A stretch of 63,495 bases of DNA, the filler included, from Octopus bimaculoides (lineage: Eukaryota): assembly GCF_001194135.2 (NCBI RefSeq). It is 6 parts of 5 records of this genome, joined end to end, with 100 filler letters (N's around TTAATTAATTAA, not from the genome) between each part and the next. Parts side by side here need not be neighbours in the genome. Positions count along the whole stretch, not along the records: positions 26,280 to 45,771 come from NC_068982.1; positions 45,872 to 50,085 come from NC_068989.1; positions 50,186 to 63,495 come from NC_068998.1; 3 more parts are not named here. One strand, given 5' to 3'. Shown one piece after another: positions 34,036 through 58,112 of the stretch (the stretch's first letter is position 1; each line of letters starts with the position of its first letter). A program made the position numbers and the translations under genes. The notes under the pieces are model-generated. The model made no database searches and was not told where the DNA came from. It saw nothing but the letters and a program-made list of their open reading frames with translations.

Positions 34036-34071
<36 letters not shown>

Positions 34072-34505
34072 GGCGGTGTGCTGACAGAATCGTTAGCTCG
34101 CTGGTCGAAATGCTTCGTGGTATTTCGCCCGTTGCTACCTTCTGAGTTCAAATTCAGCCGAGGTCGACTTTGTCTGTCATCCATTCAGAGTCGATAAGGT
34201 AAGTACCAGTTGAGTATTGGGGTCGATGTAATCAACTAGCCCTCTTCCCTAAAATTTCAGGTCTTATGCCATTAGAAGAAAGAATTATTATTATTATTAT
34301 TATTACGCAAAATCGTTAGCGCGCTGGACGAAATGCATAGCGGTATTTCGCCCGTCGCTAGGTTTTGAGTTCGAATTCCACCGAGGTCGACTTTACCTTT
34401 CACCCTTTAGGGGTCGATAAATTAAGTACCAGTTGAAAACTGGGTCGATGTAATCGATTCATCCCCTCCCCCAAAATGGCTGCCTTTGTGATAAAATTTA
34501 AAACG

Positions 34506-34890: not shown

Positions 34891-36191
34891 TCAACACAAG
34901 AAGAGTTCACAACTTCTTGCGGAAGCAGAAGAGTATCAGAGGATTACGTGCCGTGCCATTTCACACCTTTAGCAAGAGGGAATGCAATGCGTCCACGAAT
35001 CTATTCCGAAAAAGAAGCAGTAATTTCCAACAAGATGAGTCGTCACGCAACGTAACATAACAACATGACAATAAAATCACGGTCGATCATGAGAAATACC
35101 AATGAATTCGGCAATATTAACAATAGCAGATGTCAACGAAAAAAAAAAAAAGCAACATCAACAACTAAAAGTGTAATCCCTCCTGCAAATCCGACAAACC
35201 TTTTAGAGAAATGACTCCGCAAAATAACAAGAAAACATGCAATTTCTAAGAAACGATGTTACTCTTCCCTGTCCCTTTCAATTGCCGTGTATTGCAACAG
35301 CGTTGAATCTGAATATCCACTTTGATCGATACTAAAATATTTTTTAAACCCGAAAAGCTAGCAGGTCTAAAGTCACAGAGAAATGTGTGAGAATGCTGGA
35401 TCTCCTAGAGGACAAATAACAACAGCAACAACAATGCAAAGAACTGCAAAAGCAAAACCATAATTAGCAACAACACAGCAGGAAAAACTGCTGTAGTTAC
35501 AACTACAAAGACCACAGCAACAGGACAACCAACAATGAAACTAAAACAAACACAATATTAACAATAACAGCTGTCCGCAACTTCACACAGCAAACATTAC
35601 AACTATGTCCTCCCAACCATCTTTCCCCCACCTCAAAAGAATGGTAGAAACTATTAGGGGCGGGATAGAAACGTTTGATCTAATATCTATAAGACAGACT
35701 CCGCGTGAGGACGACATTAAAAGTACATAGATCTATAAGGAACAAATTCTCAATCTACGTACAGCTGTTTAAATATATTCCAACGTCTAAATTGCTGGAA
35801 GATTTCTTCAGGGGATTTAAAATACACGTCAAAAAGAACAGTGAGGTAAGGAATGTTCTCCAATCTTCGGTTTAATCAATGTTGTGAATGCGAACACTTG
35901 CAGGTGTTTGGTAATAAGATCACTTGCTGAATTACCTTAGCTAAATTTAGATGTAATTAGGCATTAGAAGAACTAATCGACCGTCAAACCCTCCTCCCAC
36001 AACATTTCAGGCCTATAGTAGAAATAATAATTATTACTATCATGAAATTCCGATAAAACAATATTAAATTTTTAATAACATTACTTGCACTGTGCAGAAT
36101 CTAATCTTATTTTGTCATTTCATTTTCCTTTTAACTGAATCAACATATCAAGATATATATAAATAATTATTATGTCTAAATTATTATGTCT

Positions 36192-36363
36192 AAACATTCA
36201 GTAACAGTACTCTAGAGTAAAGATTATTCACCAACATAATGTGGCAGTCCTGATTAGGACGAATGTTACTGTTATTTAACCCCAGGAAACATTCGTCATA
36301 ATCAGGACTGCCACATTATGTTGGTAAATAATCTTTACTCTAGAGTACTGTTACTGAATGTTT
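36192..36363. repeat. Near-perfect 74-bp inverted duplication (hairpin)
   Basis: 36192-36265 is the reverse complement of 36290-36363 with about 2 mismatches. Confidence 0.92.
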
Positions 36364-36480
36364 CTCGTTCAGAAATTCAGAAATAATAATTCTCTATTTA
36401 TGAGATCAGTGCCTGTATGTCACTTTAAAAAGTATATATTTCGAACAAGAGTCTAGTGTCGCAATCTCTAGCCGACTAGT

Positions 36481-36531
36481 TATCCTGTGCTGATGAAGTC
36501 AAATAACCCAGAAACAAGTGGTACACAGATA
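36481..36531 (+). ncRNA. Minimal type I hammerhead ribozyme-like motif
   Basis: TATCCTGTG-CTGATGA-agtcaaataaccca-GAAAC-aagtg-GTA-CACAGATA: intact core, stem I with one bulge, weak stem II. Confidence 0.6.
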
Positions 36532-37199
36532 TTGGTTTGGGCTGAGTGAGGACGCTGAACTCCCGCGTTCGAAAATATAAGGACGCAGATAGTGCGTCGA
36601 TAATCAGCTCGAGACTATATTTCCTGGGGCTGAATAACAGTAACATTCGTCCTAATCAGGCTTCTACATTATGTTGGCAAATAATTTTGTGTGTCTGTGT
36701 TTGTCCACCCAACATCGCTTGACAACCGATGGTGGTGTGTTTACGTCCCCGTAACTTAGCGGTTCGGCAAATGAACCCGATATAATAAGTACTAAGCTTA
36801 CAAAGAATAAGTTCTGGGGTCAGTTTGCTCGAGGAAAGGCGGTGCTCCAGTATGGCCGCAGTCAAATGACTGAAACAAGTAAAAGAGTAAAAAGAGTATA
36901 CCTTTCATAAAAACCTTGAAAGTATTTTTCCTGACGTTCTATATTTATATGTGTATGTGCCTGCCTAGTGTGTGCGTGTGTATATGCATACACTTACACA
37001 CATGAACAGAAAACAGACAGACAGACAGACAGATTGATAGATATCGATATATAGATACGTACATATATTCAAACATAGAGTATACACGATATTTGTAACG
37101 AAAGAAAGTGTGAATAACATTTTTATTAATTGACATAGGTTGTTTAAATGCACATGATGGAAAAAATATCTCTTTTTTCTGTAGGGACCCTTGACACCG

Positions 37200-38260
37200 T
37201 CTTTTATTGCTGCAAGCAAATAACGGGTTCCAAGCAGAAGCAAAGTGTCATCATTGAGTTCTTGGCGATGGAGGAGTGCAGACAATCTGTCATCTAAAGA
37301 CGGCTACCGATTGTTTAGAGAGATTACACCGTTAAAAAAAAAAAGCGATGCTCTCAGATGGATGGAGTTTCAACAAAAGAAAACAGCATGGAAATCAAAC
37401 CCTTCAGTGACAGATTATCATTTTCGACCAATGACATGAACTGGGAGTAAGCGGACAGACAAAACACAATCCGTAAACTTAGGGCACAACCAGACTGAGG
37501 TCACAGTGCATTACAGAAAATTATGAAATATTTTATGTATCGTAAAATAAAGCGTGTACAAATTGAATACATCAGTAGTTAATCTCAGATTTCAAGGAGA
37601 GAAGTGTAGAAGTCTTCATTGATCAACAAACGATTGAATATACGTTTATTCTCCGATTTGTTGACAGGGAATGAAATGAAATTTCAGCCCATCAATTGGC
37701 GTTACATCTCTTCAAGACCTCTTGAAGAGCAAACGATTTACAAAGAAAATCGTGGCGAGATGACAAGGCGTAAATTTTCTTGCTTTTTGGCATGTGACTG
37801 TCACGTGAACAATGAGCTGTACAACGACACATTTAAAAAGCATAGCATACGCTTAAAGAGGAAGAGACCGAAAAAGAATTAGAAAATTATCCACATCCAC
37901 CATATGAAGCGTGACCAGGCATTTTTGCAACAAATTAAGTAATCCGCAGATTGAGTTGCTCAGTCGTCCAGTCGTCCAGTCATCCTGTCATCCTATCGTC
38001 TACCATCAACCGTACAGCCCGGACCTCACGCCTTCCAGCATCGTCGTATTTCTTCTAATCAAGGGATGTCTGTGGGGACAACGATTTGATAACATAAACG
38101 AGACAAAAATGCTGGGAAAATGTGAGTTCACCAGCGCATACCTGAATTTTTTCAAAGAGTATTCGAGAGTTGAGTTCAATGAGTAGTACCTTCGTATAGA
38201 GAAAATGTAACTAAACCTAATGTGCAGTTTTAACGACCAGCTTCACTTAAAAAAAGAAAT
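37200..38260 (+). mobile_element. Degraded mariner remnants
   Basis: KQ.VIIEFLAMEE...RRL N-terminal motif; C-terminal HQPYSPDLTPS...IKGCLWGQRFDNINE. Confidence 0.75.
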
Positions 38261-38662
38261 TCGTATTCACTTTTGCATTACTCCCAGTATAATTCACATC
38301 CCTGTGCATATGTATATATGTATATAATTCACATCCCTGTGCATATGTATATATACACTGATTTGTGTGTTAAATACACATACATACAAAAATAAGAACA
38401 TACAACTGAAGTGTTGGTGTAACTTTCTTTATCTGCATTTATTTGTGACAATACAACAGTATGACTTAATGCGTAGCATATATTGTATATTACTGCCGAT
38501 ATGTAAACATAATTTATCTTCCTAAATTATTATAACAAGGAGAATGCTGTGAAACGGCCGTAATTCTAAGGATAACAAGTGGTTAAATAAATATATTCAC
38601 CGTTCATACTTCCTGACTTTTTATGGTTTAAGCATATGCGTGTGCGTGTGGAGAGAGAAATC

Positions 38663-38702
<40 letters not shown>

Positions 38703-39984
38703 TAGAGTGAGTGAGAGAAAGACAGGTAGATAGAGAAAGAGACAATTTATGTATATGCAGATGTGCGTGTGTCCTTATATACGTGTTATAGAAAATTATT
38801 GCAATATTTTAATAATTATCTTTATTATCCTACCAGAATTCTACACGTATTGTTTCATACATTAATAAAACATTATTTGCGCATTGTTTTTTTTTTCTTT
38901 TTCGATTTCTACATCTTTTAAACATGTATTAATATCTGAATTTTAATGTGTAGTTTGTTGATTGTATTGTCATAATGCCATCAATGTTGTAGCATGAATA
39001 CGTGATTATATGATTTACCATTGTCATCACGTTTCAAATCGTGTGATATTACTGATTAGATTAAAATTGTTGATGAAGGCAAACTTTTTTCGTAAAATCA
39101 CAATCACAGAACTCGATGACTATCTCTTGGAGATGTTAGTTGCACTGATGATAAAACGCCATTAGTAAGCTATAAAGTGAATATTTAATTGGACATGTGA
39201 CATGTATCCAACTAAAGCATTTCGCCTCACTCGTGTTCTCCCCTGTTCTGTAAATTATTTCGTATAATATTTGAGTTAGAAGCAATCTTTCAATGCAGAA
39301 TGTAATAAATAACATAGAGTTGAATTACACAATAAATGCAATATTAAATGTGTTTATGATAATAACATATTTATAATTAACTACGTTGACAATTGTATAT
39401 TTATGATATTGATCTGAACAGTACTTTTTGTAATTATGAAAGTTTTCCACTTCTTGAGAGGAAAGTGAAAAATTTTGATGGAAAGCAAACAGAATGTAAT
39501 AATGCACTTTTATTGCACATAATCTTTTCATTTGATACACCCGGCTGATGGGGCAGTATCCTTCGATACCGTTGAGACTAACGCCTTTAATGTTTTTCTT
39601 AAATTCTTTATAAGCCAACATATGCAAAAGAAAAACATGAGCAAGGTGGGGTTCCGGGAGGATAAAGTCCTCTGAGGAAGGACAGTATGTACAGACTAGA
39701 GAAAATCTGAGCGGATGGATACAAAATGAGTGATGAGAGGGATTGAGACAACTCGGGTGGGAATGCTAGAGTGGAGGTGGTACGAGCCCAACAAGTAGTA
39801 TAGGCCGACAAAGAAAATACAGAGGTGAAAGTATCTCTTTAATCCAAACTTTGGAGGATGAATGTTTTCAGAGTAATATTTGATTACTTACCATAGGGCA
39901 ATGATATAATTCTGTCTAATATTTTATACTATGAGTATCTTGCACTGGTAGTATAGTTAAAATATTCGCTTTGCAATAATATGT

Positions 39985-40330
39985 TTCCGTATTCCGTCTC
40001 ACTACTAAGTACCATAAATGGTTAAAACCTCTGTAGTCGTGAATGACCATGGCATTGCACCGAGAAAGTTCCCCTCCAAGGTACAAGTCTGGACTAGGTT
40101 GTTTATAGAAGACCATGCATACCGGCCTCCCCTCTTCACGCCACCGATGTTATCCAAGGGAAAGGCAAAGGCCGATACAGCTTGGCACCAGTGACGTCAC
40201 AACTCATTTCTACAGCTGAATGAACTGAAGCAACGTGAAATAAAGTATCTTGCCCAAGAACATAACACTCAGCCCGGTCCAGGAATCGAACTCACTACCT
40301 CATGGTTGTGAGCCCGACGTTCTCCCATTG
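39985..40330 (-). mobile_element. tRNA-derived SINE family C, near complete
   Basis: Minus strand: GTCGGGCTCACAACCATGAGGTAGTGAGTTCGATTCCTGGACC (B box)...TTTATTTCACGTTGC...GGTGCCAAGCTGTATCGGCC; related fragment at ~46730-46920. Confidence 0.85.
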
Positions 40331-41624
40331 ATAAGTGTCTACTGTCATATCCTCGAAATAAAGCCAGTAAACTGACCATGCAGAACTTGTGTAGGTGACC
40401 ATCGGTTATATCTACTCTTGAAGAGAACCCTTGAATTCACATCCGGTTCAAAATCACCATCCGATTTGGTGGGGATTTAACGGAGTCCAGTCTGTTTCAT
40501 TTTGATAGTAGACTGAAAATTCAGCTGATTTAGCATTATTTACCACTTGGAAAATGAATGTTTTTAGCAGGGTCCAATCCGGTGCAAGTTAGGAATACCT
40601 AAACATTGATTTCAAATTTTGGATTAAGGCCAGCAATTTTGTGAAGGGGATAAGTCGATTATATCAACCCCAGGATAAAAGGCAAGGTCGACCTCGGCGG
40701 AATTTGAACTCAGAACATAAGGGCGGACGAAATGCCGTTAAGCATTTAGCTCGACATGCTAACGATTCTGCCAGGTCACCGCCTAGGGATTACCCAAATG
40801 TTAATAAATGTCTTCCTACAGCAGCAACTGTGAATTCCTTTCTCCCAATCTATTTTACGGAACGAACAAAGAACATGTGCTTAGCCCTTCTTCGTTTTAC
40901 TAAACCGTGATTCCGACCTTACTGTCGGAATCATTCACCAGATTTATATTAACTGAACGCTAGCACTATCACTGTCTTCTCTCGGGTAATTGCAATAAAT
41001 CATATACAACTATCTATCTACCTAATTCTTCCGATTAATTCATTTATACTACTACTACAACTACCACTGTTACTTCCATACTTTCCAAGTCTAACTCTAT
41101 ACCATCCTATCTACCAAGCAACAACCTTAATCGTCCATCCGTCTGCTCACCACACGTTGCTGATTAGCTTCCGTTGAACTTAGATAAATAAGTCTTATGC
41201 AGATGGGAAAATTGTTTTGAGCAAATATTCAACTACACTAATACAACTATGTAAATAAATATTTCAACTCTGAATTATATACACACCTACACATATTGAG
41301 ACACAATATAATCTAATTATGTGAGCGTCTGTATATGTGTGTGTCAGCGTGAGTATGTGTTTAATTGTGCGTGTGTGTGTGCCTGTATGTATGAGTTTAA
41401 CAAGTTCCACTTCTATGAAATTTGTTAGGTAAAAGTTCACCAATGCGTACTCAGCTCAGATTTGTTATTGTTTGTTTATTGCTTTGTTTGTTTGTTTTTT
41501 TTTATCAACCTGATTTCATTCAAATAGAATGTCTTCTCATTAATTCAGTATTTCAAAGTGTTCATTACATACAGACATACACACCCAGTCACGTGCATTG
41601 TATGTACCTCTGTGCGTGTGTGTG

Positions 41625-41657
<33 letters not shown>

Positions 41658-41995
41658 GTGTGGTGTGGTGTGTGTGTGTGTGTGTNNNNNNNNNNNNNNN
41701 NNNNNNNNNNNNNNNNNNNNNNNNNNNNNNNNNNNNNNNNNNNNNNNNNNNNNNNNNNNNNNNNNNNNNNNNNNNNNNTGTTTCTAATAACTGTCAAACG
41801 TGAATTGAAGTAACTATTTTATTTCAACAGAACAGAAACATTACAAAAAACAAGAATATAACAACTGAAAGAGTAACGAAGTTTCAATTACGAAATAAAT
41901 ATAAAAGATTAAATAACAAAAAATAATAAATCTCGAGAAAGTGTTTGTTGGTCATTCTAGAAGCATTTCAGTAGGTAAGAATTCTATTGATTTTA

Positions 41996-42054
<59 letters not shown>

Positions 42055-42598
42055 GGTGGTGGTGGTGGTGGTGGTCTTTAACAGCAATTTTGAGGGATGA
42101 GTTTTAGCCGGTTGCATTAACCTTGATTACGTAACTGTTACTTCATTTTTTCGATTCCGAGAGTAACGAACAGCTACATACTTGATAGACTTAGAAAAAC
42201 CTTTACTCATACTTGAGTTCCCTTTAACTAAACGTCACAATAGAAGCCAAACTTATCATGGCTCATTTCTTCGAAGTGGCTACATTTATACGAGAGATTC
42301 GCGTATTTATTAATAGAGCTTTCTACTGACCAGCCAAAGTGTTCAGCAACCTGATTAAGAGGATGAGCAGAATTTCTAACCTTTGTGCGAGATCAAAATT
42401 TTTTCATTCCGCGGACACGTATGACCGCCAGCAGATTTAAAGATAAGAAATTTTTGTTTCCCTGAACTAAAAAACTTGCGTAGCTAAGATATTTCCTTTA
42501 GCTTAGTCGATAAACAGTTTCCCCAAACATATAAGTTCGGAAGAATATTTAATAGACACACCTTAAAAGTTTCTTTTAGCTATGCATCTAGTGTAAAA

Positions 42599-42972
42599 GG
42601 CGCAGGAGTGGCTGTGTGGTAAGTAGCTTGCTTACCAGCTACATGGTTCTGGGTTCAGTCCCACTGCGTGACACCTTGGGCAAGTGTATTCTACTATAGC
42701 CTCGGACCGACCAAATCCTTGTGAGTGGATTTGGTAGACGGAATATATATATGTATATGTGTGTATATCTTTGTAGGTCTGTGTTTGTCCCCCCAACATC
42801 GTTTGACAACCGATGCTGGTATTTTTACGTACCCGTAACCTAGCGGTTGGGCAAAAGAGACCGATAGAATAAGTACTAGGCTTACAAAGAATAAGTCCTG
42901 AGGTCGATTTGCTCGACTAATGGCGGTGCTCCAGCATGGCCACAGTCAAATGACTGAAACAAGTAAAAGAGA
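42599..42972 (+). mobile_element. Full-length SINE family A
   Basis: A box TGGCTGTGTGG, B box GGTTCAGTCCC, internal (TA/TG)n, 3' GACTGAAACAAGTAAAAGAG; head-only copy at 51339-51459. Confidence 0.9.
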
Positions 42973-43398
42973 GACCCATACCTAAGACAGAGGCAGGGTG
43001 CTTATACACAGGTAACACTGCATATCTACGTTAATTCCAATGCAACAAAGCGATGTATATGAAGATGGGGTGATATCAAACGATCCCAGTGTGTAGACGG
43101 ACGTGCAGGAACACATGGGTGGGAGAGAACTTATTTAACAAATAAAAGTACGCTTTTAATATCCAGGAAAAACGAAGTGTCACAGCTTTCGATATGTATA
43201 TAGGATTACTGGAAAATCATAAATGCCTACTTAAATGGACAAGCGAAATCTTCTGATACTGCTCACATGAACATAAATATGCTTTGGGTTATAATCAGAC
43301 ATCAAAATAAATATATCATTATATCTCTAGCCATCAATACTTTCCATCACCAAAGTCTGAGAGGCTTGTCATGATCAAATTATTTCATAGAAACACGC

Positions 43399-43465
<67 letters not shown>

Positions 43466-43784
43466 AACATACGTACATGTCTACACAAGTAACGGTTTTA
43501 CGCTTAACATAACACATAATAATTCGTGCGTGACTGTTAGGGTAAACACAGTTTTAAATAAATTTGATTTGAATAAATTTCAGTTAGATTAATTAATTAC
43601 GTTTCACAATTATGTAATTATACGTTTATTGATGTTTAGTTAATGAAACTGTTGTTGAGCTCAATTACGGTTAAAATTATATCTGAAATTTGTGTATGTT
43701 TTCCTGCTTTTCTTGCAAATACAGTAGTTCGTGTGTGTGTGCGTGTGTTTGTATGCCTATGTGTGTGTGTATGCGTATGTGTGT

Positions 43785-43985
43785 GCATACAGATATAGAT
43801 ACATACGCACATACAGGTACACACACATACACGTACACACACACATATATATATATATATAATATATATATATATATATGATATATATGTATATATAATA
43901 TATATGTATATATATAATATATATATATATATATGATATATATGTATATATAATATATATGTATATATATAATATATATATATAT

Positions 43986-44019
<34 letters not shown>

Positions 44020-44028
44020 CACATACAT
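43785..44028. repeat. Compound (CA/TA)n microsatellite with higher-order periodicity (representative of many TA, CA, ATAC, GATA, AAT and GAT tracts in the window)
   Basis: Directly visible; e.g. also 1-235, 26585-26665, 33480-33617 and 60138-60235. Confidence 0.95.
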
Positions 44029-44147
44029 NNNNNNNNNNNNNNNNNNNNNNNNNNNNNNNNNNNNNNNNNNNNNNNNNNNNNNNNNNNNNNNNNNNNNNNN
44101 NNNNNNNNNNNNNNNNNNNNNNNNNNNNNNNNNNATATATATATATA

Positions 44148-45339
44148 CATGGTGCGGTGAATAAATTGTCGTCTAACGCAAAAATGAAAATAACACTGAC
44201 ATCTCATTTTAACAGATATATTTTCCACAATTACACAAAAATATCTTGAAATACTACTGAGTAGAATTATTCTATAAAATCGCTATTGGCTTCAACCACG
44301 GCCTCTAGACGACTTTGGAATCTCCTGCAAATCTTCTGGACGGCCTCTTTGCCTTCGATTCATCTTTGATGTTACAAGGAGTTTTGATGGTATCTCGCTC
44401 AACTGTGCTCCACACATAATATCCAAAGTGGTTGCAATCTTGGAAGTTAGGTGGCCGAATGTTTGGGGTGATGCGGTCGCAGAAATTGTCTAACAGCCAT
44501 GATTGGGTTCTCTTGATTGTGTGACATTGTGCGGAGTCCTGTTGCCAGACATAAGGTCTTCCAGCAGCCACCCCCTTGACCCAGGGCCGCACTACCTCAT
44601 CCAGGTATGTAGGCCACCCTGTTGAGTTTGAGGCCGCGTGGGAAGATGAATGCAGGCATAACGTCACCACTATTGATTACTCCAAATATCATGACGTTGA
44701 TTGGATATTTGATTTTTATCACTCTTGGCAAATGTTTTAGGGTGAGCCAACGGTTGTTCTCTGTGTTCACCACCTGATCTTGTCTGAGAAAAACCAAAGG
44801 CTGTTCGTGTTCGGTTGGAAGGGATGCGTAAATTTGTCCATAAGCTTCGTAGCGCAGTCTTTACTCTTGATAGCTTGGGGTAAGAATTGGCCCTTTATCA
44901 CTTTGTATGAAGAATTCCGAATGTCGTCATGCACTACCTGCTGATGTGAAACTTAGACGCTACCATGTCCCTGAAGATGGACCTAATTGACTTAGAGGGA
45001 TCGTTGTCAATCATGGCTTGTAATTCACTAACACAATCCGTAGTTCTTTTCTTATCTGAACAATCAGAGTGAGTTTTCCAAGCTATCTTACCTTCGTAAT
45101 CATCATTAGATTCATCCAACTCTTTCCAATCCTCTATACTGTCCTGAGATTGACACCCAAACACCTAAGCATGTCGTTTCCAAATTTCAGGTAGACTAAA
45201 TTGCGTCATGGCGCTGTTTTCTCACAGGCGGTGCCAAACTGACCCTAATATACTCTGTAGTAGACAAAATCAAAAACAAGCCGTGCGCATGAGCAAAATG
45301 AAAAATATATAATGGTGGCAATTTACCCATCGCACCCTG
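44148..45339 (-). mobile_element. Near-complete decayed Tc1/mariner element, maT/DD37D-like
   Basis: Imperfect TIRs CATGGTGCGGTGAATAAATTG / CAATTTACCCATCGCACCCTG, TA on the left; relic transposase MTQFSLPEIWKRHA..VNTENNRWL..PW..VAAGRPYVWQQDSAQCHT...PPNFQDCNHFGYYVW. Confidence 0.88.
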
Positions 45340-45344
45340 TTTAT

Positions 45345-45771
45345 GTATGCATATAGAAAGACCAGCAAACATGCCAATAGAATTCCTAGAGACAGGAAAA
45401 TCTTTATGAGACACAGAACAAAGGTCTCAAACCAGTTAAATAGAGAACTGGAGGATAGGAAAAGGGCTAAATTAAAACTAACACTGTTAGAAATAGAAAA
45501 CAAAATTAAACTCTCCCATGAAAAGGAGAGAGCAGAGAAGGAGAAGAGAGCAGTGGAAAGCATAAAAACAAACCCCAAGGCTTTCTATAGATTTGCAATA
45601 GAGACTGCTACGGTAGAGTGTAAGATAGGACCCCTATTCCTGCCTAATGGCTCACTGACTGCAGATCCCACATGGATAAGTGAAGTGCTCAGTACACAAT
45701 TCAAGAGTGTCTTCACTTCTCCTCTGAGTCACATGCAAATAAAGAACCCAGCTGATTTCTTTGACAATAGC
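45345..45771 (+). mobile_element. CR1/L2-like LINE internal fragment (EN-RT linker)
   Basis: IKTNPKAFYRF...KIGPLFLPNGSLTADP..ISEVLSTQFKSVFT; runs into a gap. Confidence 0.8.
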
Positions 45772-45872
45772 NNNNNNNNNNNNNNNNNNNNNNNNNNNNN
45801 NNNNNNNNNNNNNNNTTAATTAATTAANNNNNNNNNNNNNNNNNNNNNNNNNNNNNNNNNNNNNNNNNNNNA

Positions 45873-46231
45873 TACCTATTGTCATAGCTGTCCTGGGAAT
45901 GACAGCGAAACGGGCTGATTACTACCTAGCTCAGATACCAGGAAACCCCAAAATGGCTGAAGTTCAAAAGATAGTGCTCATGGGAACTGCCCATATCCTA
46001 CGTAAAATACTGTCTATGTGATCTCAAATTTTAAAGCAAACACATAATTTTCTTATGGTTTCTTAAACATTCACTTGAACAAAACTGTACAAATCCAAAT
46101 ATATGGTACCCTAGGCATAACACCTACATGAACTTCTAACTTGTTGTCTCTTGAGGTCTCTGGGTGAGACTTGGATCCAACTTGTACAAATGCAAAACAA
46201 AAGTCAAACATAAAATAATAATAATAATAAT
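45873..46231 (+). mobile_element. R4/Dong-like RLE LINE 3' end with (AAT)n tail
   Basis: IPIVIAVLG...IPGNPKMAEVQKIVLMGTAHILRKILSM*, a 3'UTR, then AAT repeats. Confidence 0.82.
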
Positions 46232-47171
46232 TCTTTCTACTATAAGCACAAGGCCTGAAATTTTGGGGGTGGGAGATAGTCGATTACATCGATCCCCAGT
46301 ACTCAACTGGTACTTATTCTATCGATCCTGAAGCGGCTCAAATTTCAAAGAGGAGTAGTTTTATCATAAAAGGACAGTCTTCTATTATAATTACATTCGC
46401 TTCTACGCTGTTGTTTTAAAGGAATATTAAATTCTTCCCATAAATAATCGAGATTGCAGCGATTAAAATTACATTTGACCTGCGTAGGATTCGCACTCGG
46501 AACGTAAAGGACTGCTACTAAGTACATTACTTCAACCTTCTGACGATGCCGGATATCATTTCATTTCGTTCTAATATTTGCATTTTATTTGACACCTGAT
46601 TTCCTTAACACCTCTTTCTCACTCACGATTATGTCTTGGTAACTTGCTACACATTCGATACTTGCTTTAGGTACCTATGTAGATACAAACAGAAATGGAC
46701 ACGTTTTCGGACCTCCCATCCCTGATCCGGGGTCTGATCCAAAATGTCACAGCTGGTGAGGGACAGAGGTGCACCAGCAGCCAAATGGTACTCGTATTCA
46801 GCTGGGTAGACGATAGTAAACGTGAAATGATGTGCCTTCATCAAGCAAAAATATACCGTATGGTCCAGAAATTGAAACCAAGCTCTTATAATCATGAGAC
46901 AAACTTTGTAAACAAGAGACAATATGCGTTCGCAAAATTCGTATAAACAGGCGATAAAAATGAGTGTAAGAATAAGCAAAACAAACAGTTATATTAAAAC
47001 GAAAGGTTGGGGTAAGAGTGTTACATAATATATTAAGACGCTAATTATTTTTAATTACAAAAAGATATTTTAATGAAACACACGCATACACACTCACATA
47101 CATACATACATACATACATACATACATACACACATACATACATACATACATACATACATACATACATACAT

Positions 47172-47520
47172 GAAACACACTGTTTAAATACCGATCTTGA
47201 GAAATTAGATTTCACAAAACCAGAAAGGAGAAAGCTGATTCGAAGACTACAAGCCAAGCCATCACTGTGACAGTAAAAATTTGTAAAACATTCGAGAAGT
47301 TTATCATTTATGTATATATGAGCATGTCTAGATATGCACGTATATGCATGAGAATATATACACAAAGCAAAACATACAAATCTGCACATATACATACGTA
47401 CATACATACAAAAATACCCTGTTGTTGAAATTTCAATTAAGGAGTTTTGCATCTCGGTTAGAAACTGGCTCTTTCTTTATTGGCAAGAATTCTTGAGATA
47501 AAACTGAATAATGGCATACA
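47172..47520 (+). mobile_element. 3' end of RLE-type LINE family X
   Basis: HCLNTDLEKLDFTKPERRKLIRRLQ...; begins directly after an ~80-bp (CATA)n tract. Confidence 0.88.
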
Positions 47521-49254
47521 TATTTTTAGAATTACCATAAAACCGGTTACTGATATTTTAAATATCAGTAATTGGAATTAAAACATACGTTTCAAATGGC
47601 TACATAGCAATTCTTTTTACATAGGTACCATTATCATCAGTTCATTAAAAGCCAAATACATTAAGGGAATCTAGTTCGCTCTTATATACATAAAACAAGG
47701 TTTAAAGAAAGTCACGTGATACAATAGAAAACAGCCATAGAAATAAAAGCAATCTGATATATAAAAAAAAAGCAAATTATAAAAGAAAAAAATGAGAGTA
47801 TTATCATACTTTGCACCAGTGATTCCTAAACTTTTTCTGATTACCACCCCCACCCCATTGTCACCCAGACCACATACTAACGCAGCCTCCCATACACACA
47901 CCACCACCACCACCACCACCACCACCACCACAAGAACAACAACAACAAATTTACACCTCTTTCTATTGCAAATTCAAAACAACTGTATTTCACAAACATA
48001 GTTAACCGGTTATTCTTCTGCTTTTACAATGTGAAAGAGTTCTTGTCATTATTATTGTTGACGTTGCTTTGTTTAGTGTCATGTTTTCGAAAATCTAGGG
48101 AATTCCCACGGGAATATAATGACCAGCTTCGCTAGTAAACTTTTGGGGCTTTCCTTATTTTTGTTCTGTGTACTTGTTTCAAAGAAACAGGCAACTTTTT
48201 GCAAATCCATTTTTGAATGCTATCTTCTAAACCTGAGTGTACCATTGCAAAATAGAGGGGAGTATTGCCATCCATTGCCCCACGTTTAGTCACCCCGTTA
48301 TCGCCCCATTTTTTCTCAACGCCCCCGTGGACTTTTCGACCGCATACCAGAGAGGCGTTACTGTTCACTCTGGGAATCACTGCTCTGCAGATTTGAACAT
48401 GGATGTATGCTAAGTTTCATAGAATATATGCAATTTGAAAGCAGTTGAGCGGAAACAATGACGTGAGAGGACGAATAGATCTGAATTATAGGTACATCTA
48501 AATTTGTATTTAATACAAATTTTTAACAATTATGTTGTTTTAAAACAGCTACAGAATTTTAGATTTCTAAGTAAAAGGAAGAACATTATGATGAAGTTTA
48601 AAATTAATATGGCAGATATAGTGGAGAATATGCCGCTTGATTTATTGAAGAACATATTTGCTTGTTATCGTATTTTATTCTATGAGTGAAAGCAAGAGAA
48701 ACAGAGCATAAATTCGAACGTCGAATTCGGAAACTACTATTTCTGTATATACTGACGTGGAGAAACGAGTATTAGGATAAAAACTTGACAACTAAAAATG
48801 TATTAAACACATGGTTTTAAAGCTTCAAGAATAAATCAAAGTATCAGTATATGTGCTATAATTAACACTAAGGACATATGTCCTTTCAAATTCTTGTGTA
48901 ACATTTCTTCAGTCACACACACACGCACACACACACACATATGCACGTATACATATATTTATGCATACACACACACACACACACGTATATATAAATATAT
49001 ATATACATATATATATGTGTGTTTTTATTATGTGAATCATTTATTGATACAAGCAAACACATGCGAGCGCACACTCACACACACACTCATACACGTACAA
49101 GCACTCAATTTAAATTTGACACAAACATATTTTAAAGGAAGTTTAAGAATGTGATGGGAGAATTCAATCCTGAGAGCAGAGTCAAATTTATTGGGAAATT
49201 AGTTGACGAGGACTGCAGAATAAATACATACAAACATACATACATACATTTTCA

Positions 49255-50035
49255 TCACGGTATTATCTACCAATGAGACATGATGTAGCTAGAGCACTTT
49301 ATAATGAAATTCGTTGGAAGGATAACCCAGAGGACAAAAAAAAAAAGAACCCACAGTATGTTAGAAGCCATAGCCACTCATAATAAAGAGGAGTACTGGT
49401 GGAATGTCCCAGTGAAGACATCAATAAAATGTATGCACAACAGACCTGATATAATGATTTGGGATAAAGAAGTGAAACTGTGTACAGCTGTGGAAATTAG
49501 CTGCCCAGCGAATGTTAACATAAAGCTGAAAGTTAGCGAAAAATAGAATATCTACGCTGAACTATTGAGAAATCTTTAGTTACTCTATCCAGATTACAAG
49601 TTCAAGTTTATACCTGTAATTATTGGGATCCTGAGATATATAACATACTGCCTAAATACCAATCTTGAGAAATTAGGCGTTTCAAAATCAGAAAGGAGAA
49701 AGTTAATTCGAAGACTACAGATCCAATTCATCATTGGAACTTTAAAAATCTGTAAAACTTTCCAAAAGTTCATCCTTTAAATACATATGAGCATATCTAG
49801 ATATGCAACTACACGCACGGGAATACATACATAAAACAAAACATACAAATCTGTACACATACATACATACATACATACAAACATACATACATACATACAT
49901 ACATACATGCATACATACAAAAATACCGTTGTTGGTGTTGAAATTCCAATGAAGTAATCTTGGATCTAGGTTAGAAACCGGCTCTTTCTCTATTGGTAAG
50001 AAATCTTGAAATAAAACTGAACATACTTACAGACA
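49255..50035 (+). mobile_element. RLE-type LINE family X, longest copy (restriction-like endonuclease domain)
   Basis: YYLPMRHDVARALYNEI...WWNVPVKTSIKCMHNRPDIMIWDKEVKLCTAVEISCPANVNI..K.SEK.NIY.EL (RHD and PD..(D/E)xK-type motifs). Confidence 0.88.
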
Positions 50036-50702
50036 CACACATACACACAAATGCGAACACACACACACATATATATATATATATANNNNNNNNNNNNNNN
50101 NNNNNNNNNNNNNNNNNNNNNNNNNNNNNTTAATTAATTAANNNNNNNNNNNNNNNNNNNNNNNNNNNNNNNNNNNNNNNNNNNNTAGCAGTAGGAATGG
50201 TTCTTGCTGTTAAGGGAGATGACTCCACACAAGAGTTCTCCTTCTTGAGAAATTGCATCTACATGCTTAACCACAAAAACGATTGTCGAGATTAGACACA
50301 GGTCCCAAGTCTAATGTAATATGAGATTATGTGGCGTTCATTCTATTCTTAAAGAAATTATGTAGTACAATGAACACGATTGCCATCATCATAATATATA
50401 TATTTATGATAGTGTATATGTATGATAATACATATATAATATAATTCGTTTTTGACTCTCCCGCACCGAATATATATATATATATATATATAATACAGTT
50501 CTAAATCTCTCAGAGAGATTTATGCAGCAGTGGTGCGATAAAGTAGTTGTATGCTGTCAACTTAATGTAACAGTCCCATGAAGTGAATAATACTACTGCT
50601 ATTTAGCCTTAGGAAGCAGCGCTTCCTGTTGACCCTGACACATTTCCTGTGTTCTTATGTTTACAACGGGGAGACAAACACCCCCACTTAGCTAAGCCTG
50701 CA

Positions 50703-50745
50703 TCTAGAGACATGTTTCTGAGTCTTTGCTCGTCATCAGTCTGGA
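50703..50745 (-). ncRNA. Minimal type I hammerhead ribozyme-like motif
   Basis: TCCAGA-CTGATGA-c-GAG-caaaga-CTC-a-GAAAC-AT-GTC-TCTAGA: intact core, GUC triplet, palindromic stem III (ACAUGU), stem I 5/6 pairs. Confidence 0.68.
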
Positions 50746-51884
50746 GTAGCAATCTCCAACTAGCAGGCCATACATACATACATACGCACACACATGTATA
50801 CACATACACATATGCATAGATACACAGAGTAATGGATTTAAAGAACAGAGTTATAAAGAAAAAATGTTTATTAAAGAAAAACAATTTGTGATGTCATCAG
50901 GTCCAAGAAAAATAGTTAACATCATGTGACATGAAAAGGTTTCATTTTATTACATTTGTTTAGTCAAGACTACAGTCGAACCATCGGAGATTAATGGGAG
51001 CAAGGAACAAAGTTATATTTACACTGGGAAATTCATGATTCTTGAGTCAGGCTGACCAAAACAGGAGGGAGAAAGGGACAAATATATATATATTTACACA
51101 GGGCAACCCTGACCCTGGTTAAGGTCTTTCAAACTGGAAACATGAAGAGACGAAATACAAAATTATATTTACACTGGAGACCCATGATCCTTGTCAGGTC
51201 AGCCATGTCCTGAGACAGGGCTCAAATGCTTAATTATATTTAGATTGTAAGCTTGCAGGATAAGTTATTGAAATCAGAGTTAATTGCATCACATTTTACT
51301 TTTCTCAATTAGTTAAAAAAAAAAAAAACGCAAACATTGGCGCAAGAGTAGCTGTGTGGTAAGTAGCTTGCTTACCAACCACATGGTTTTGGGTTCATTC
51401 CTACTGCGTTGCACCTTGGGCAAGTGTCTTCTACTATAGCCTTGGGCCGACCAAAGCCTCAACTGGTAATCTGTTAGCAACCTCAACTGGTAATCTAACA
51501 GGTTACATAAACTGCCCCAAAAATACTATGGAGGGTGTGGACAGACCAAACATAGAATAATTGAAGAACAAGAATAAAACAAAACAAATAAAAACACGAT
51601 GGAATGGTCACAGCTGGGACGTCTTTGATCATAGGAATATCATTGTAGGAAACATATCTGAAATGAAATGAGGTAATTTGGTAACGGAAGAGAGGGAATG
51701 ATGTGATGATGGAACACTGGAAGTTCAAGTCTTTGCAGGGTTGGGTTCAACATGTTGCAGGAGTCACAGGTGGACTTGTACACAGTTGTTGAGAGGTATC
51801 CAAGAGATACAAAGAGAGCATTTGGAAGACCTGCATAGTGGATGTGGACATAATAATAATGATGATAATAATAATAATAATAAT

Positions 51885-52082
51885 CCTTTCTACTAAAGGC
51901 ATAAGGCTTTTACATTGCCAATTACATTGACCCCAGTGTTTCACTGGTACTTAATTTATCGACCCTGAAAGGACGAAAGGCAGAGTCGACCTCGGCGGAG
52001 TTTGAACTCAGAACGTAAAGACAGATGAAATGCTGCAAAACATTTTTCCTGGCATGCTAACGATTCTGCCAGCTCGCATCCT

Positions 52083-52116
<34 letters not shown>

Positions 52117-52325
52117 TAAAAATTATGATAATGATTTCAAATTTTTGCCACAAGGGCAGCTTGTGGGGAGTGGGATTTAAGTCGATCACATCATCCCCAG
52201 CATTTCATTGGGACTTATTTTATTGACCCCGAAAGGATGAAAGGTAAAATCAACCTCAGCGGAATTTGAACTCAGAACGTAGCGATGGGCGTGATACCGT
52301 TAAGCATTCTGTCCGGCTCACTGCC
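51885..52325 (-). mobile_element. Two family B SINEs just downstream of the SIL1 stop, same sense as SIL1
   Basis: Copies at ~51885-52082 and ~52133-52325 bounded by (AAT)n. Confidence 0.88.
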
Positions 52326-52456
52326 ATAATAATAATAATAATAATAGTTATAATAATAATAAATAATAATAATAATAATAATAATAAATAATAATAATGA
52401 TAATAGCCTTAGCTGTCAGGAAGAGACCTGCTAAGAAATGGGAGCAAAATTGAACA

Positions 52457-52655: not shown

Positions 52656-52959
52656 TCACAATTCCACTTTGTGTGTCTGTTGTAAAGAGTTCAGAACGTC
52701 TGTGACCAAGTTGTGTAACGAGCAGAAGTACAAATCGCTCGTGGGGTCCTCATTTTTCTCTTTCGTACACAGTCCCGAGTACTCAAAACTGAGTTCGTGT
52801 AGCCTGGGTGTTAAGGGCTGAAAACTTTGATTGCAGCTGGACGTTAGAAGTTTGGAAGCGGTCAGTATTTTCTCCTGGCTGTCGTAGTCGGAGAGGTTGA
52901 GCAGCGAGGCCACTCTGTCACACCATCCAGTTAGGGTCATCTTTTCTAGAAGATTTATG
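52656..52959 (-). CDS. SIL1: SIL1 terminal coding exon 9
   Basis: TTTCAG| phase 2; INLLEKMTLTGWCDRVASLLNLSDYDSQEKIL matches [22 protein letters not shown]; ends HKVEL-stop. The nine exons total 1440 nt (479 aa + stop). Confidence 0.94.
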
Positions 52960-53989
52960 CTGAAAGCAGACAAGAAGAAACACAATATTTAGGTTGAGAA
53001 TTAAGATGAAAAATCATCATCATCATCATCTAGTGTTTTAAATCCAAGTTTTGTCCCCATTAACGGGGGTGGCCAGATCTACCCCAATGTCATAGCAACT
53101 GAGGTAGCCAGGTGCACCCCACCCTAACCATTGGGCTGACTGGTGCCCATTCTCCTTTGCTATCATGAGGCTTTTTTGGAGCTGGATTTTCTACGGGGAG
53201 CATGCCCTTGCTTTCTTTAGTTTCTAGACATGAGTGGTCCCGAGACCAAGGTCTCTACCATGATTTTTAAAAAAGTGTGCATACATTTGTGTGTGTTGGT
53301 GGGTGTACATGTATACATTTGTGAGCGCATGTATGTATTCATATCTTTGTATACGCACATATGCATGTGTGTGAGAATGTGTATGTGTGTGTGTGTATGT
53401 ACGTGAGTGTATATGTGTGTGAGAGTTTCTATGTGCACGTGCAAGCATGTTTAAAGGTTTCCTGGTGTGTGTGTGTGTAAAATGAGGTCATAGTCATCAT
53501 CAACATCACCAATGCTGGTGGCATGAAAAACAAAAACCCACCTAGCATCCACATGTAAAGTGGTTGGTGTTAGGAAGAGCGTCCATCTGTTGATGCCGTC
53601 CCAAAGAAGTCACTGGGCTCATCGGATTTCGTCAAACTGTCCAACCCATGGACATCAAGCGATGATGATGGTGATGATGATGGTAGTGATGACCCACTAC
53701 GGTTCTATGGGTTGGAAAGAGTTGCGATGGTCGTGGGCAGAAATCACAGAGTTGTCATTTAGTATGACTTTATGAAACTATCACTACTGCTGCTGCTATT
53801 ACCAATACCTCTACTACTAACTACATGTGTAGCTACTAATACAACTAAGACCACTGCCACTACTACCACTACCACTATCCCCATAAGCACCAGCTGAGCA
53901 GGACCGTAGTTTACCAAAATCTATATCATGGTACCTGTCAGTTAAAGCAGCCTAGCCAGGTGAATAATATACCCCACTTCTTCACTTAC

Positions 53990-54057
53990 CTCTCATATTG
54001 TCGGAGTTTTTCTCTATTTTTAATATTGTTGTCTTGCGAGTGAGATGCCGAAATTAC
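53990..54057 (-). CDS. SIL1: SIL1 coding exon 8
   Basis: TTTACAG|...AG|GTAAGT, 68 nt, phase 0-2; VISASHSQDNNIKNREKLRQYE (SIL1 EKLQQY motif). Confidence 0.92.
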
Positions 54058-54298
54058 CTGTAAATAAGAATAAAGGTAAGTCACACAATCGAAATCTCAA
54101 AAGCTACAAGATAAAGCTGGATAAATTTAAAACAATGTGGATCAATAAATGTCACATTTGATAGAATAATCTGAATGCTAAAGGGTTAAAGAGCAAAGAC
54201 CATCAGGGGTCGCTGCAAAGGATGCTTGAGGGCTGCATGTAGCCCCGGGGGATGTGGTTGAGAACAGTTGATATTGAGGCTTTTGTGTTTCTGCTCAC

Positions 54299-54560
54299 CT
54301 TTTCTGAGATCAAGTCTGCAAGAAGTGTTACAATCTTCACTTGAATTGCTTCTGTCTTTGACTCTGAGTAAAGCTGTGTGAATGCAGACAGACCTCCGAG
54401 GGCCAGGAAACGCTGCTGTGCATAGAGATTGTGTCGGAGGAGCACCGATGCTGCATAGAGGCACTTCTTTCGTACGGCCAGGGAAGGCTCAGTGGAAATC
54501 ATAGTGATGAGTCTCTGCATAACACCAGCATCAACTGCAGTTAACTGCACAACAGGATTA
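54299..54560 (-). CDS. SIL1: SIL1 coding exon 7
   Basis: GTGCAG|...AAG|GTGAGC, 262 nt, phase 2-0; NPVVQ...KKCLYAASVLLRHNLYAQQRFLALGGL...VKIVTLLADLISEK matches the SIL1 core. Confidence 0.95.
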
Positions 54561-54653
54561 CTGCACATTAATGAAAGAGAAAACAAAATAGATTAGTTCC
54601 TTTACTAATTAGGCAATTAAGTTTGTGTTATTAATTTGATTGGATATAAGTGC

Positions 54654-55173
54654 AAGCATGGCTATGTGGTTAAGAAGGCTGCTTTGCAGCTCATGTGGTT
54701 TGGGGTTCAGTCCCACTACATCATACCATGGGCAAGTGCCTTCCGTTATAGCCCTGGGTCAGCACCATCCGAGCATGATTGTTGCCAGGGCTGCTGATTG
54801 GCTCCCGTGCTGGTGGCACCTAAAAAGCACCATTGGAGTGTGATCGTTGCCAGCATCACCTTATTGGCACATGATAAACAACATTTGAGCATGGTCGTTG
54901 CCAGAGCTGCTAGACTGGCTCCCATGCAGGTAGCACATAAAAATCATCTTTTGAGCGTGGTCATTGCCAGAACCACCTGACTGGCCCTCGTGCCGGTGGC
55001 ACATAAAAGCACCCATTACACTCTCGGAGTGATTGGCATTAGGAAGGGTATCCCACTGTAGAAACTTTGCCAGATCAGATTGGAGCCCGGTGCAGCCTTC
55101 TGGTTCGCCAGTCCTCAGTCAAACCATCCAACCCATGCCAGCATGGAAAGTGGACGTTAAAAGATGATGATGA
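54654..55173 (+). mobile_element. SINE with internal tandem subrepeats and (GAT)n tail in SIL1 intron 6
   Basis: tRNA-like head, four GAG..TG.TC.TTGCCAG units (54771, 54836, 54887, 54953), and an AACC.TCCAACCCATGCCAGCATGGAAAG.GGACGTTAAA(GAT)n end. Confidence 0.88.
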
Positions 55174-55188
55174 TCAAAGGTTCCTTAC

Positions 55189-55310
55189 CTCTGCATTGCT
55201 GATCCGAGTACAAAAGCTGTGTCGTGTTTCACATCCGTGTCTGTGCTGTTTAGTAAGTTTACTAGGAGAGAGATTCCGCCAAGTTCGGCAAACAGCTGGG
55301 CATTATCAAT
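55189..55310 (-). CDS. SIL1: SIL1 coding exon 6 (ARM-like core)
   Basis: TTTGTAG|...AG|GTAAGG, 122 nt, phase 0-2; IDNAQLFAELGGISLLVNLLNSTDTDVKHDTAFVLGSAMQS matches MDNAQDLLSFGGL..AFVLGAAFSS. Confidence 0.95.
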
Positions 55311-55972
55311 CTACAAAGGAAACAGACAGGAAGTCCTTAACATAACTTAGACACCAACAAAAAGGGGCCCTTAAAACCAGTGGTTCACAGGCCAATGTCA
55401 CATGCCCCACCAGTTGGATGTGACAACTTTTAAAGGGGCATCAGTTACCCCAGAATGGGGTAGTCTAAGTAGGAAATTAATGAAATTTGCAATTAAGTTT
55501 CAATTAAAACTTCTTTTAAGTAAGCACATAGATACACACACACACACACACAAGTATATGGCCAGGACTGGATTTTATACTGTTATCAAGAATAGTGTAC
55601 ATTGCAAGAAATAGCAGTCAAATCTCCCTCAAATAATCACTGTACCATATTATGAAAATGAAGGACGCAATCCTAGACAGAAGAGAGTAGACATGGTTGT
55701 ATTTCATATAACCATCATGGATGGTGTACACTGCATAAACATAACTAAAAATAGCAGCTAAATCTCTCTTGAATCCCATTCTATCATCTTATGGAAAAGA
55801 AGGGTAGCAGCAAATCTCCCCCTCTCTTATTATGGAAAAAGAAGGGCACAGTGGGAAAGGTAGTCCTGAGTACTAAAGGGTGGTCATGGCTGGATTTCAA
55901 GCATATACCATGGACAGCATACATTGCACAAATACAAGAAACAACATCATGTTAGTTACAGTAATTACTCAC

Positions 55973-56116
55973 CTGATGCAAAAAGAATTCCAGTTCGGAG
56001 AGGATACTCTGAAGATCTTCCTTCTGGAGTACAGCGTAATCTTTCAGTTGATCATGTAACATGGTGACGATTTGAGCATCAGATTTTATAGATGATCTCA
56101 GCATCTCATAATCCCT
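55973..56116 (-). CDS. SIL1: SIL1 coding exon 5
   Basis: RDYEMLRSSIKSDAQIVTMLHDQLKDYAVLQKEDLQSILSELEFFLHQ resembles SIL1 KDFDELN..TDMQI..LFDLEYYVHQ; donor CAG|GTGAGT is solid; the 5' boundary (AAG acceptor) is less certain. Confidence 0.88.
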
Positions 56117-56339
56117 CTTTAGTAACGAAAGGAAATAAAATAAATACATAGAACATTAGTGATTGTGTTGTCATGGTGGTCATATCCTGAGGCACTACTC
56201 ATCCTACCACTCTCACTCAACTTGCTCTCTTTCACTTCAACTTCAGCGAGTAGGACTTTCAGTCACTCTGATTGAAAGACTCTCAAGAAATCTCTTGTCC
56301 TTCTTCATTCCTTGAAGTTCATGATTTTCCTGTTCCTTG

Positions 56340-56480
56340 ATTCAATGGAAATATGTGAAACTAAGCAATGATGAAATTGAGGTCTCAGCTTTGTATATAG
56401 AAAACCCAGGCCCTTACACCAACGGGAGCAAGCATTGCAAGCTGTGCATAGTTGAGCAGGCAAGGATATTGAAGTACTCC
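56340..56480 (+). mobile_element. Possible Penelope GIY-YIG C-terminal relic in SIL1 intron 4
   Basis: PYTNGSKHCKLCIVEQARILK resembles the PLE motif PY.NGSKRC.LCL.EK..IL. Confidence 0.45.
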
Positions 56481-56910
56481 CTCAACCTGGAGGAACATCT
56501 TAAATTCCAGGATGGGAGTATTCAGTCCCTGCTAGCACTTCAGGAGATTCCTGCTGAAATCTCATGGAATGGATTCCAGATAGCTGCCTAAAGGAGAGAA
56601 TTCCTTGCACTTAGTCCTTTGTCTGTGTGTTTCAACAACCAGCCACAAGGTCTTTTCTCTCTCCACTTTGAAGAGAGGTTGCAGGCCATCGGCCATTGTG
56701 GTCTGACAAGAGACTGAAAAGCTAAATGCTTTACAAATGTGAAACCCTGGATAAGCCCACAGATTGGCCAAAACTATGTCTATCATTGTCATCGTGGTTT
56801 TGTGGCCTGAAGCAAAGCAGGCCTTGCCATCCACTCATGAAAACACTTAGTAAATGATCCACAAGAACTCAAGCATAAACTGAGTCCTAGTTTAAACACT
56901 GTGTGCTTAC

Positions 56911-57806: not shown

Positions 57807-57978
57807 CTAGAAACGATAGAGAAAGCAATTAAAAATAAATAATTACATACAGAAAGCATCAACATCATCGTCATTTAACATCTGTCTTCCATGATGGTTT
57901 GACCAGAACTGACAAGCCAGAGCACAAAGCTCCACTGACATGAAACAACAACAACAACAATGTTAATGTAATATTCAC

Positions 57979-58065: not shown

Positions 58066-58112
58066 CTGTGAATAATAATAATAATAATAATAATGATGAT
58101 AATAATAATAAC

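Follow-up and report, generated by a model that had tools for sequence, protein, structure and literature searches.

We analysed a 63,495-nt stretch of the Octopus bimaculoides genome (assembly GCF_001194135.2; six joined parts of five records, hereafter the window) and focused on two loci that carry a type I hammerhead ribozyme motif within a short repeat. Locus 1, on the plus strand, spans about 36165-36685 and contains copy 1 of the motif; locus 2 consists of a single copy, copy 2, on the minus strand. The initial annotation had described the two as copies of a structured element of ~200 nt. The hammerhead repeat is real and larger than that, with a monomer of ~354 nt. We favour, with a probability of roughly 0.6, a reading in which a non-autonomous retrozyme of ~354 nt, mobilised by a Penelope-like enzyme, gave rise to both loci as old insertions belonging to two subfamilies. 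The features on which it is based were read directly from the DNA: the homology of the two copies, a 354-nt period, a head-to-head arm, a shared 3' end beside (TA)n, and the lack of an open reading frame (ORF). The coordinates of all features are given in Table 1.

The core letters of a type I hammerhead (CUGANGA, GAAA and the UH triplet) are present in both copies, and inspection of the sequence bore out the core positions and the 3' product starts (36524 and 50708) that the initial annotation had given. Its claim that the copies can be aligned held as well: their local alignment scored 103, as compared with 28.8 ± 5.2 (maximum 53) for 500 dinucleotide shuffles and 52 for the top unrelated tile when all tiles of the window were scanned in the same way, and 126 of the 210 aligned bases were identical (60%). 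Both copies further share a motif beginning with TTCCT, in which the alignment confirmed 21 of 27 identical positions, six differences that are all transitions, and a spacing from the cleavage site to the motif of 97 nt in copy 1 and 93 nt in copy 2, all as first described. The pattern of this motif matched three times in the window, versus 0.00 matches expected; the third match, on the minus strand at 36267-36288, had not been mentioned before.

A descriptor combining the core, stem I and the 15.2-16.2 pair matched copies 1 and 2 and no other site in the window. Shuffled sequences contained on average 0.055 such sites, and none of 200 reached two. Nine loose CTGANGA...GAAA strings occur in the window, seven of which failed the stem test. 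The scan with Rfam hammerhead models that the initial annotation had proposed gave no match, whether run on the whole window (E ≤ 1) or locally, in two scans (E ≤ 10). All matches to Rfam microRNA (miRNA) models were microsatellites or a DNA palindrome and fell below gathering scores; the DNA of the window is rich in microsatellites, with an observed/expected CpG ratio of 0.62.

Locus 1 is composed of a head-to-head inverted arm followed by 1.1 direct units with a period of 354 nt. Neither the arm nor the resulting terminal redundancy had been noted earlier. BLASTN recovered both relationships, as a palindrome (36155-36401, 83.5%) formed by the inverted arm and the direct partial copy that begins at 36288, and as a direct repeat (36288-36335 versus 36642-36688). 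The two arms are identical at 73 of 75 positions in their proximal part, as compared with 40/45 and 60/68 for the redundancy. We found no homology beyond the end of the inverted arm, where 300 of 1000 shuffles scored equally, and the apparent extension past 36160 was discarded as chance. At its right end, locus 1 stops 6 nt past the CAUUAUGU-loop hairpin and abuts a repeat resembling a short interspersed element (SINE); the element does not resume after 36689 or beyond this SINE. The abutting repeat (36689-36900, plus strand) belongs to a SINE-like family with a (TG)-rich head, five other copies of which lie at 42777-42971, 1116-1325, 26718-26884, 62637-62760 and 30318-30368. As DNA, the arms at 36165-36391 form a near-perfect palindrome that scores on many Rfam miRNA models, below their thresholds, and its transcript would give a long double-stranded RNA hairpin.

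The 354-nt unit is non-coding. Its longest ATG-initiated ORF has 32 codons on the ribozyme strand and 56 on the antisense strand, and codon periodicity is lacking, with 12/32, 13/32 and 14/32 differences by frame. A coding reading of the TTCCT motif (FLGLNNSNI versus FLRLNSSSI) was ruled out by stops, frameshifting indels and the lack of periodicity.

Copy 2 is flanked by microsatellites on both sides, and its 3' homology runs ~60 nt beyond the boundary first described, a further feature that the initial annotation had missed; 8 of 1000 shuffles scored as well over this extension. Copy 2 and the inverted arm end at one homologous point, each against (TA)n; on its right side, locus 1 falls 55-59 nt short of this common 3' end. 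The intervening segment thus forms a tail-like extension that is present in the inverted arm and in copy 2 and missing at the right end of locus 1, which may be short because the abutting SINE-like repeat cut it. A search for target-site duplications (TSDs) yielded no convincing case at locus 1 and, at locus 2, no duplication that reached 6 nt; neither insertion carries poly(A). A profile search of the window recovered only the four known segments of the element, the next match having an E value of 2.3. A-to-I editing was rejected as a source of the A/G differences between the copies, since neither direction predominated (A>G 18, G>A 15, C>T 12, T>C 11). Copy 2 lies ~1.9 kb downstream of, and on the same strand as, the exons of a SIL1-like gene (52656-58201, minus strand; Pfam SIL1 E value 0.002, below the cut-off), the last exon of which ends in HKVEL followed by a stop.

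Table 1 Features of the two hammerhead loci, in window coordinates (MFE, minimum free energy)
Feature	Position	Strand	Remarks
Inverted head-to-head arm	36165..36291	-	Starts at TTCCT motif, crosses 3' hairpin domain, ends beside short (TA)n
Full 354-nt repeat period	36288..36641	+	Begins in the end of a 5'-truncated monomer and continues into the following one
5-bp hairpin with conserved 8-nt loop CAUUAWGU	36309..36326 (+); 36662-36679 (+); inverted arm; 50572-50555 (-)		
Tail-like extension, ~55-59 nt	36333..36391	+	3' strand of long-range helix plus terminal hairpin
Irregular rod, 45 pairs, hammerhead at tip	36433..36579	+	MFE prediction
Type I hammerhead motif, copy 1	36485..36528; core 36490-36523	+	CTGATGA at 36490; GUA at 36523 precedes predicted cut 36523/36524; predicted 3' product from 36524
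Small 6-bp hairpin GACGCA/TGCGTC	36582..36598	+	5/6 pairs kept in copy 2
Shared TTCCT motif, copy 1	36621..36647	+	3' half is 5' strand of long-range 8-bp helix closing the 3' domain
Terminal redundancy	36642..36685	+	Repeats 36288-36332; 40/45 identical
Copy 2, solo, 277 bp	50492..50768	-	Between (TATG)n and (TA)n; about -30 to +217 around predicted cut
Terminal 9-bp hairpin, copy 2	50502..50522	-	Ends 10 nt before (TA)n flank
Shared TTCCT motif, copy 2	50589..50615	-	Pattern match, alignment
Type I hammerhead motif, copy 2	50703..50745; core 50739-50709	-	CTGATGA at 50739; GUC at 50709 precedes predicted cut 50709/50708; predicted 3' product from 50708

The predicted fold of copy 1 is dominated by an irregular rod, in effect an extended stem I, formed by pairing between the 57 nt that precede and the 57 nt that follow the hammerhead (MFE -45.7, z -4.0, matched by 0 of 100 shuffles). 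Among 153 background tiles, none reached a z of -4 and seven reached -3, a comparison to be read with the rod region having been chosen post hoc. The complete unit of copy 1 is likewise strongly self-paired, both as a linear molecule (z -3.1, 0/100 shuffles, 59% of bases paired) and as a circle (-90.5 kcal/mol, z -3.0, none of 60 shuffles equally stable). We then took the pairs defined by the MFE of copy 1 itself and checked them in copy 2. Over the part of the rod that aligns without gaps, in a register also given by MAFFT, copy 2 keeps 11 of 14 pairs and shows six two-sided changes, all of which preserve pairing and two of which are double transversions. With a hand-set 2-nt gap, 15 of 18 pairs are kept, and 16 of 21 over everything that copy 2 covers, as compared with 4-9 of 18 in slid registers. 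Simulations with the observed transition share of 0.6 gave p values of 0.017 (14 pairs), 0.005 (18 pairs) and 0.004 (all covered pairs).

A second predicted structured region, a domain of several hairpins, takes up the other half of the unit, at the 3' end. Separate MFE folds of the inverted arm and of copy 2 give the same layout, in which an 8-bp helix opened by the TTCCT motif encloses inner hairpins and is accompanied by a terminal hairpin. Two of the six transitions in the motif are matched by changes on the partner strand, and the domain as a whole contains three two-sided changes in 30 pairs, a number reached by 10 of 500 shuffles. The hairpin with the CAUUAWGU loop is part of the RNAalifold consensus in all four segments, with one two-sided and several one-sided changes. 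The initial annotation had instead pointed to covariation in the small GACGCA/TGCGTC hairpin. All but one of its pairs are indeed retained, but its lone two-sided change consists of CG to CA plus CG to TG, which CpG decay alone could produce. Conservation of structure is better seen in the extended stem I and the 3' multi-hairpin domain than in this small hairpin, and because only two lineages contribute, the structural support overall is moderate and short of proof.

Both ribozymes are probably inactive or nearly so. In copy 1, stem I has 5 bp and stem III 2 bp with a non-palindromic AAGUG loop, while stem II has decayed to one of three pairs. In copy 2, stem II is complete (3 bp) and stem I consists of 3 bp, the C.A mismatch at the fourth pair and 2 bp; its stem III is the palindromic ACAUGU of the dimer type (self-duplex of 6 bp, -4.6 kcal/mol), and the motif is solo, with no partner nearby. 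Both copies have a mismatch at the junction of stem II and the core (A.A and C.A) and an unpaired base on either side of stem II. The active hammerhead fold is absent from the MFE structure of either locus, and that of copy 2 buries the core. It is because of the decayed stem II of copy 1, the lone dimer-type motif with a mismatched stem I of copy 2, and these inactive MFE folds that we expect little or no cleavage. The cores, called intact in the initial annotation, are so in their letters only. Published relatives display comparable features: Penelope hammerheads have an extra base after A9 and a palindromic helix III and cleave poorly even as dimers (PMC4209133), helix II of an axolotl retrozyme is mismatched at its base (PMC7229834), and a 2026 preprint reports cleavage in one of nine predicted dimers (bioRxiv 10.64898/2026.07.22.740005).

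The size of the unit matches that of known retrozymes. Repeats of ~170-400 nt with type I hammerheads have been published as non-LTR (long terminal repeat) retrozymes, including 350-390 bp in mussel and 330 and 350 bp in axolotl, and in the published model they are transcribed from tandem arrays as multimeric RNA, cut into monomers by the hammerheads and circularised by tRNA ligase (PMC7229834). The 2026 preprint derives such retrozymes, mainly those of vertebrates, from the pseudo-LTRs (pLTRs) of Penelope elements (bioRxiv 10.64898/2026.07.22.740005). Penelope insertions, in turn, are marked by an inverted 5'-truncated copy, a partial tandem, a one-sided extension and microsatellite targets, with a published tail of 30-40 bp at one end only (PMC8557442, PMC3846280), and in an Anolis element RT (reverse transcriptase) initiation is internal, at two sites that define the tail (PMC11167929). 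Locus 1 shows the Penelope-type inverted 5'-truncated copy beside a direct partial tandem, and the microsatellite flanks and the lack of a TSD agree with published Penelope insertions too, so that the layout points to machinery of this type. The notion of a non-coding hammerhead retroelement family with a conserved fold, put forward in the initial annotation, is supported, whereas its unit size was too small and the family does not represent a new kind of element.

Under the favoured explanation, an active tandem array would have been transcribed as multimers, as the retrozyme and Penelope literature suggests. Its hammerheads, having a short stem III, would cut as dimers and release monomers; the two strands of the rod, being the 5' and 3' ends of the cut monomer, would hold these ends together for ligation, and the host tRNA ligase would close the circle. 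A Penelope-like protein with RT and GIY-YIG activities might then bind the 3' domain and nick AT-rich DNA, with cDNA synthesis initiated internally on the RNA, immediately 3' of either of two hairpins. Judging from the layout of locus 1, a fold-back at the 5' junction could have yielded the inverted arm. The two loci would stem from different subfamilies that diverged while active, and the compensatory changes would have arisen because the subfamilies were still replicating as they diverged. The conserved fold most likely reflects such past selection during replication, and not a present function of both loci.

Several observations weigh against this explanation. The 354-nt period is seen at one locus, through 45 overlapping bases (40/45 identical), and copy 2 does not cover 36392-36457, where the continuity of the unit rests on locus 1. 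No tandem with two hammerheads occurs in the window: locus 1 has 1.1 units with one hammerhead and locus 2 is solo. The tail-like extension, at 55-59 nt, exceeds the published 30-40. On the structural side, the p values of the rod depend on the assumed mutational bias, rising to 0.18, 0.11 and 0.09 (in the order given above) at a transition share of 0.8. RNAalifold on our first whole alignment, which placed the 5' strand of the rod differently from the rod test, gave a structure conservation index of 0.31, with 25 of 300 shuffles as stable. Copy 2 alone disfavours the rod (-14.5 constrained versus -29.9 free), and its whole fold has a z of +0.3, that is, the truncated copy is not highly self-paired. 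The folds of the 3' domain are no stabler than shuffles (z -0.6 to -1.0), and two of its five helices are out of register between the copies. Finally, we found no additional copy in the collections searched, which contain little animal DNA; metagenome scans gave no match to a 22-nt motif and viral contigs none to the element. Twelve metagenome matches to an 18-mer were dismissed as chance level; none extended by more than 7 matching bases or was preceded by a core.

The strongest competitor, which we judge less likely, holds that autonomous Penelope-like elements left both loci behind as stumps of their 3' ends (solo pLTRs), inserted by the same mechanism and without an independent small RNA replicon. 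Locus 1 would then record two events: a 5'-truncated copy was already in place when a short stump of the same subfamily inserted head-to-head directly upstream of it, and the 354-nt period would be false. Penelope elements often insert into or beside existing copies (PMC6765202, PMC11167929), solo pLTRs and palindromic junctions are on record (PMC3846280), and the arms are more alike (73/75) than the redundancy (40/45 and 60/68). The homology of the direct partial copy to the arm also stops where the other two 3' ends do, and copy 2 starts just 30 nt before its core, as a 5'-truncated copy would. However, neither hammerhead has an ORF remnant upstream or downstream, the frames being closed and the indels 1-3 nt long; the rod takes up the 57 nt that precede the core, pairing them with the downstream strand; and the sequence continues through 36392 without the (TA)n that borders the two outer 3' ends.

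The window also contains a broken Penelope-like element at ~15.5-17.0 kb (15500-17000, plus strand), with frameshifts and stops, the 3' end of which runs into a T-rich tract. Relatives of its RT segment carry RVT_1 and PF26215 (24 of 188 candidates), and it has a CX4CxxC linker of the type known from the Neptune clade and a GIY-YIG match below the cut-off (E value 4e-4). This remnant shows that such enzymes existed in the genome. It lies 19 kb away in window coordinates, and no hammerhead was found downstream of it. That it has no sequence in common with the element counts against the stump reading.

If the retrozyme reading is right, the covarying 3' domain, with its TTCCT-motif helix, CAUUAWGU-loop hairpin and terminal hairpin, could be the RNA signal by which a Penelope-like RT recognises the retrozyme and starts copying, an idea that we offer tentatively and regard as rather unlikely at present. 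Insertion ends come in two types that are separated by 55-59 nt, and each type follows a hairpin within ~10 nt on its 3' side; they would then correspond to two RT start sites, a non-coding counterpart of the tail of the Anolis carolinensis Poseidon element PAc. Were this so, the partnership between retrozymes and Penelope would become a defined, testable cis element. Penelope-like elements have been proposed as helpers of animal retrozymes, a role not yet demonstrated, and a hammerhead unit that lacks an ORF, has covarying structure at its insertion ends and combines a one-sided tail with an inverted arm in the manner of Penelope lends added support to such a helper. It also names a short RNA domain that purified Penelope protein could test. 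As loci, both copies are decayed and ordinary.

Among described systems, the element resembles metazoan non-LTR retrozymes (PMC7229834; bioRxiv 10.64898/2026.07.22.740005) in its type I hammerhead with a short stem III, non-coding unit of ~350 nt, GC content under 45% (here 39%), strongly self-paired predicted RNA (copy 1 unit), dispersed monomers and co-occurrence with Penelope-like elements, and differs from them in lacking a two-hammerhead array in the window and in having an inverted arm and a tail-like end at the insertion. This likeness is one of features. With the pLTRs of endonuclease-bearing Penelope elements (PMC3846280, PMC8557442) it shares the head-to-head 5'-truncated copy, the partial tandem, the one-sided extension and the (TA)n flanks, and with Penelope hammerheads (PMC4209133) the extra base after A9 and, in copy 2, the small palindromic helix III. 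Unlike those pLTRs, it has no ORF, its extension is longer (55-59 versus 30-40 nt), and both copies have an extra A before G12. Octopus Naiad and Hydra elements with a (TA)n preference are listed by Craig et al. (PMC8557442), and four short motifs taken from the element had no match in their supplement. Similar to PAc (PMC11167929), the ends are fixed ~100-200 nt downstream of the hammerhead, with two alternative end sites beside stem-loops and AT-rich targets; in PAc, by contrast, the post-hammerhead region encodes protein and an AC-rich stem-loop contains the RT start, whereas here the region is non-coding and there are three outer 3' ends. We found no published cephalopod family of this kind in the literature; Repbase and Dfam lay outside the search, and the family may already be catalogued there.

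The Schistosoma SMalpha and W-element repeats (PMC8490949, PMC6765202) are likewise short (about 335 bp) and carry a type I hammerhead, a comparison made by description. SMalpha is SINE-like, with a promoter as well as a hammerhead (PMC8490949, PMC6765202), and so the octopus element might be a hammerhead retroposon of that type, transcribed by RNA polymerase III from internal A and B boxes just past the cut. Scored against consensus patterns, an A-box-like 12-mer does lie at +15/+16 (no mismatch in copy 2, one in copy 1) and a B-box-like 9-mer at +42/+44 (two and one mismatches). Both strings sit in the paired 3' strand of the rod, which accounts for their conservation. Boxes of tRNA-type promoters are spaced about 30 nt or more apart, and those found here, at ~16 nt, fall well under this spacing. 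There is also no poly(A) and no TSD, an inverted arm is foreign to SINEs, and in contrast to SMalpha no convincing internal promoter is present; we therefore consider this origin very improbable. Least credible of all is that these are functional ribozymes conserved by the host. Copy 2, for instance, might act in the 3' part of the SIL1-like gene, whose strand it shares, and it retains stem II, every core letter and the palindrome of stem III. However, this motif is of the dimer type and stands alone, its stem I is mismatched and its core is buried in the MFE fold, copy 1 has lost its stem II, and the flanks at both loci are transposon-like.

Other repeats and fragments populate the window. 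A second SINE-like family, with at least 13 copies usually beside (AAT)n, occurs at 3466-5440, 10191, 13049, 34069-34444, 40654, 51889-52384 and 61923. Two decayed regions resembling long interspersed elements (17350-19400 and 23500-24800, plus strand) contain gag-like ORFs with zinc knuckles (zf-CCHC E values 5e-5 and 0.01) and an endonuclease-like fragment. On the minus strand at 44278-45164, fragments of a decayed mariner/Tc1-like transposase are visible by eye, the one frame tested having no Pfam match. An 88-codon frame at 56325-56591 (plus strand), also without a Pfam match, carries a PYxxGSKxCxLC pattern reminiscent of the C-terminus of Hydra-type Penelope endonucleases.

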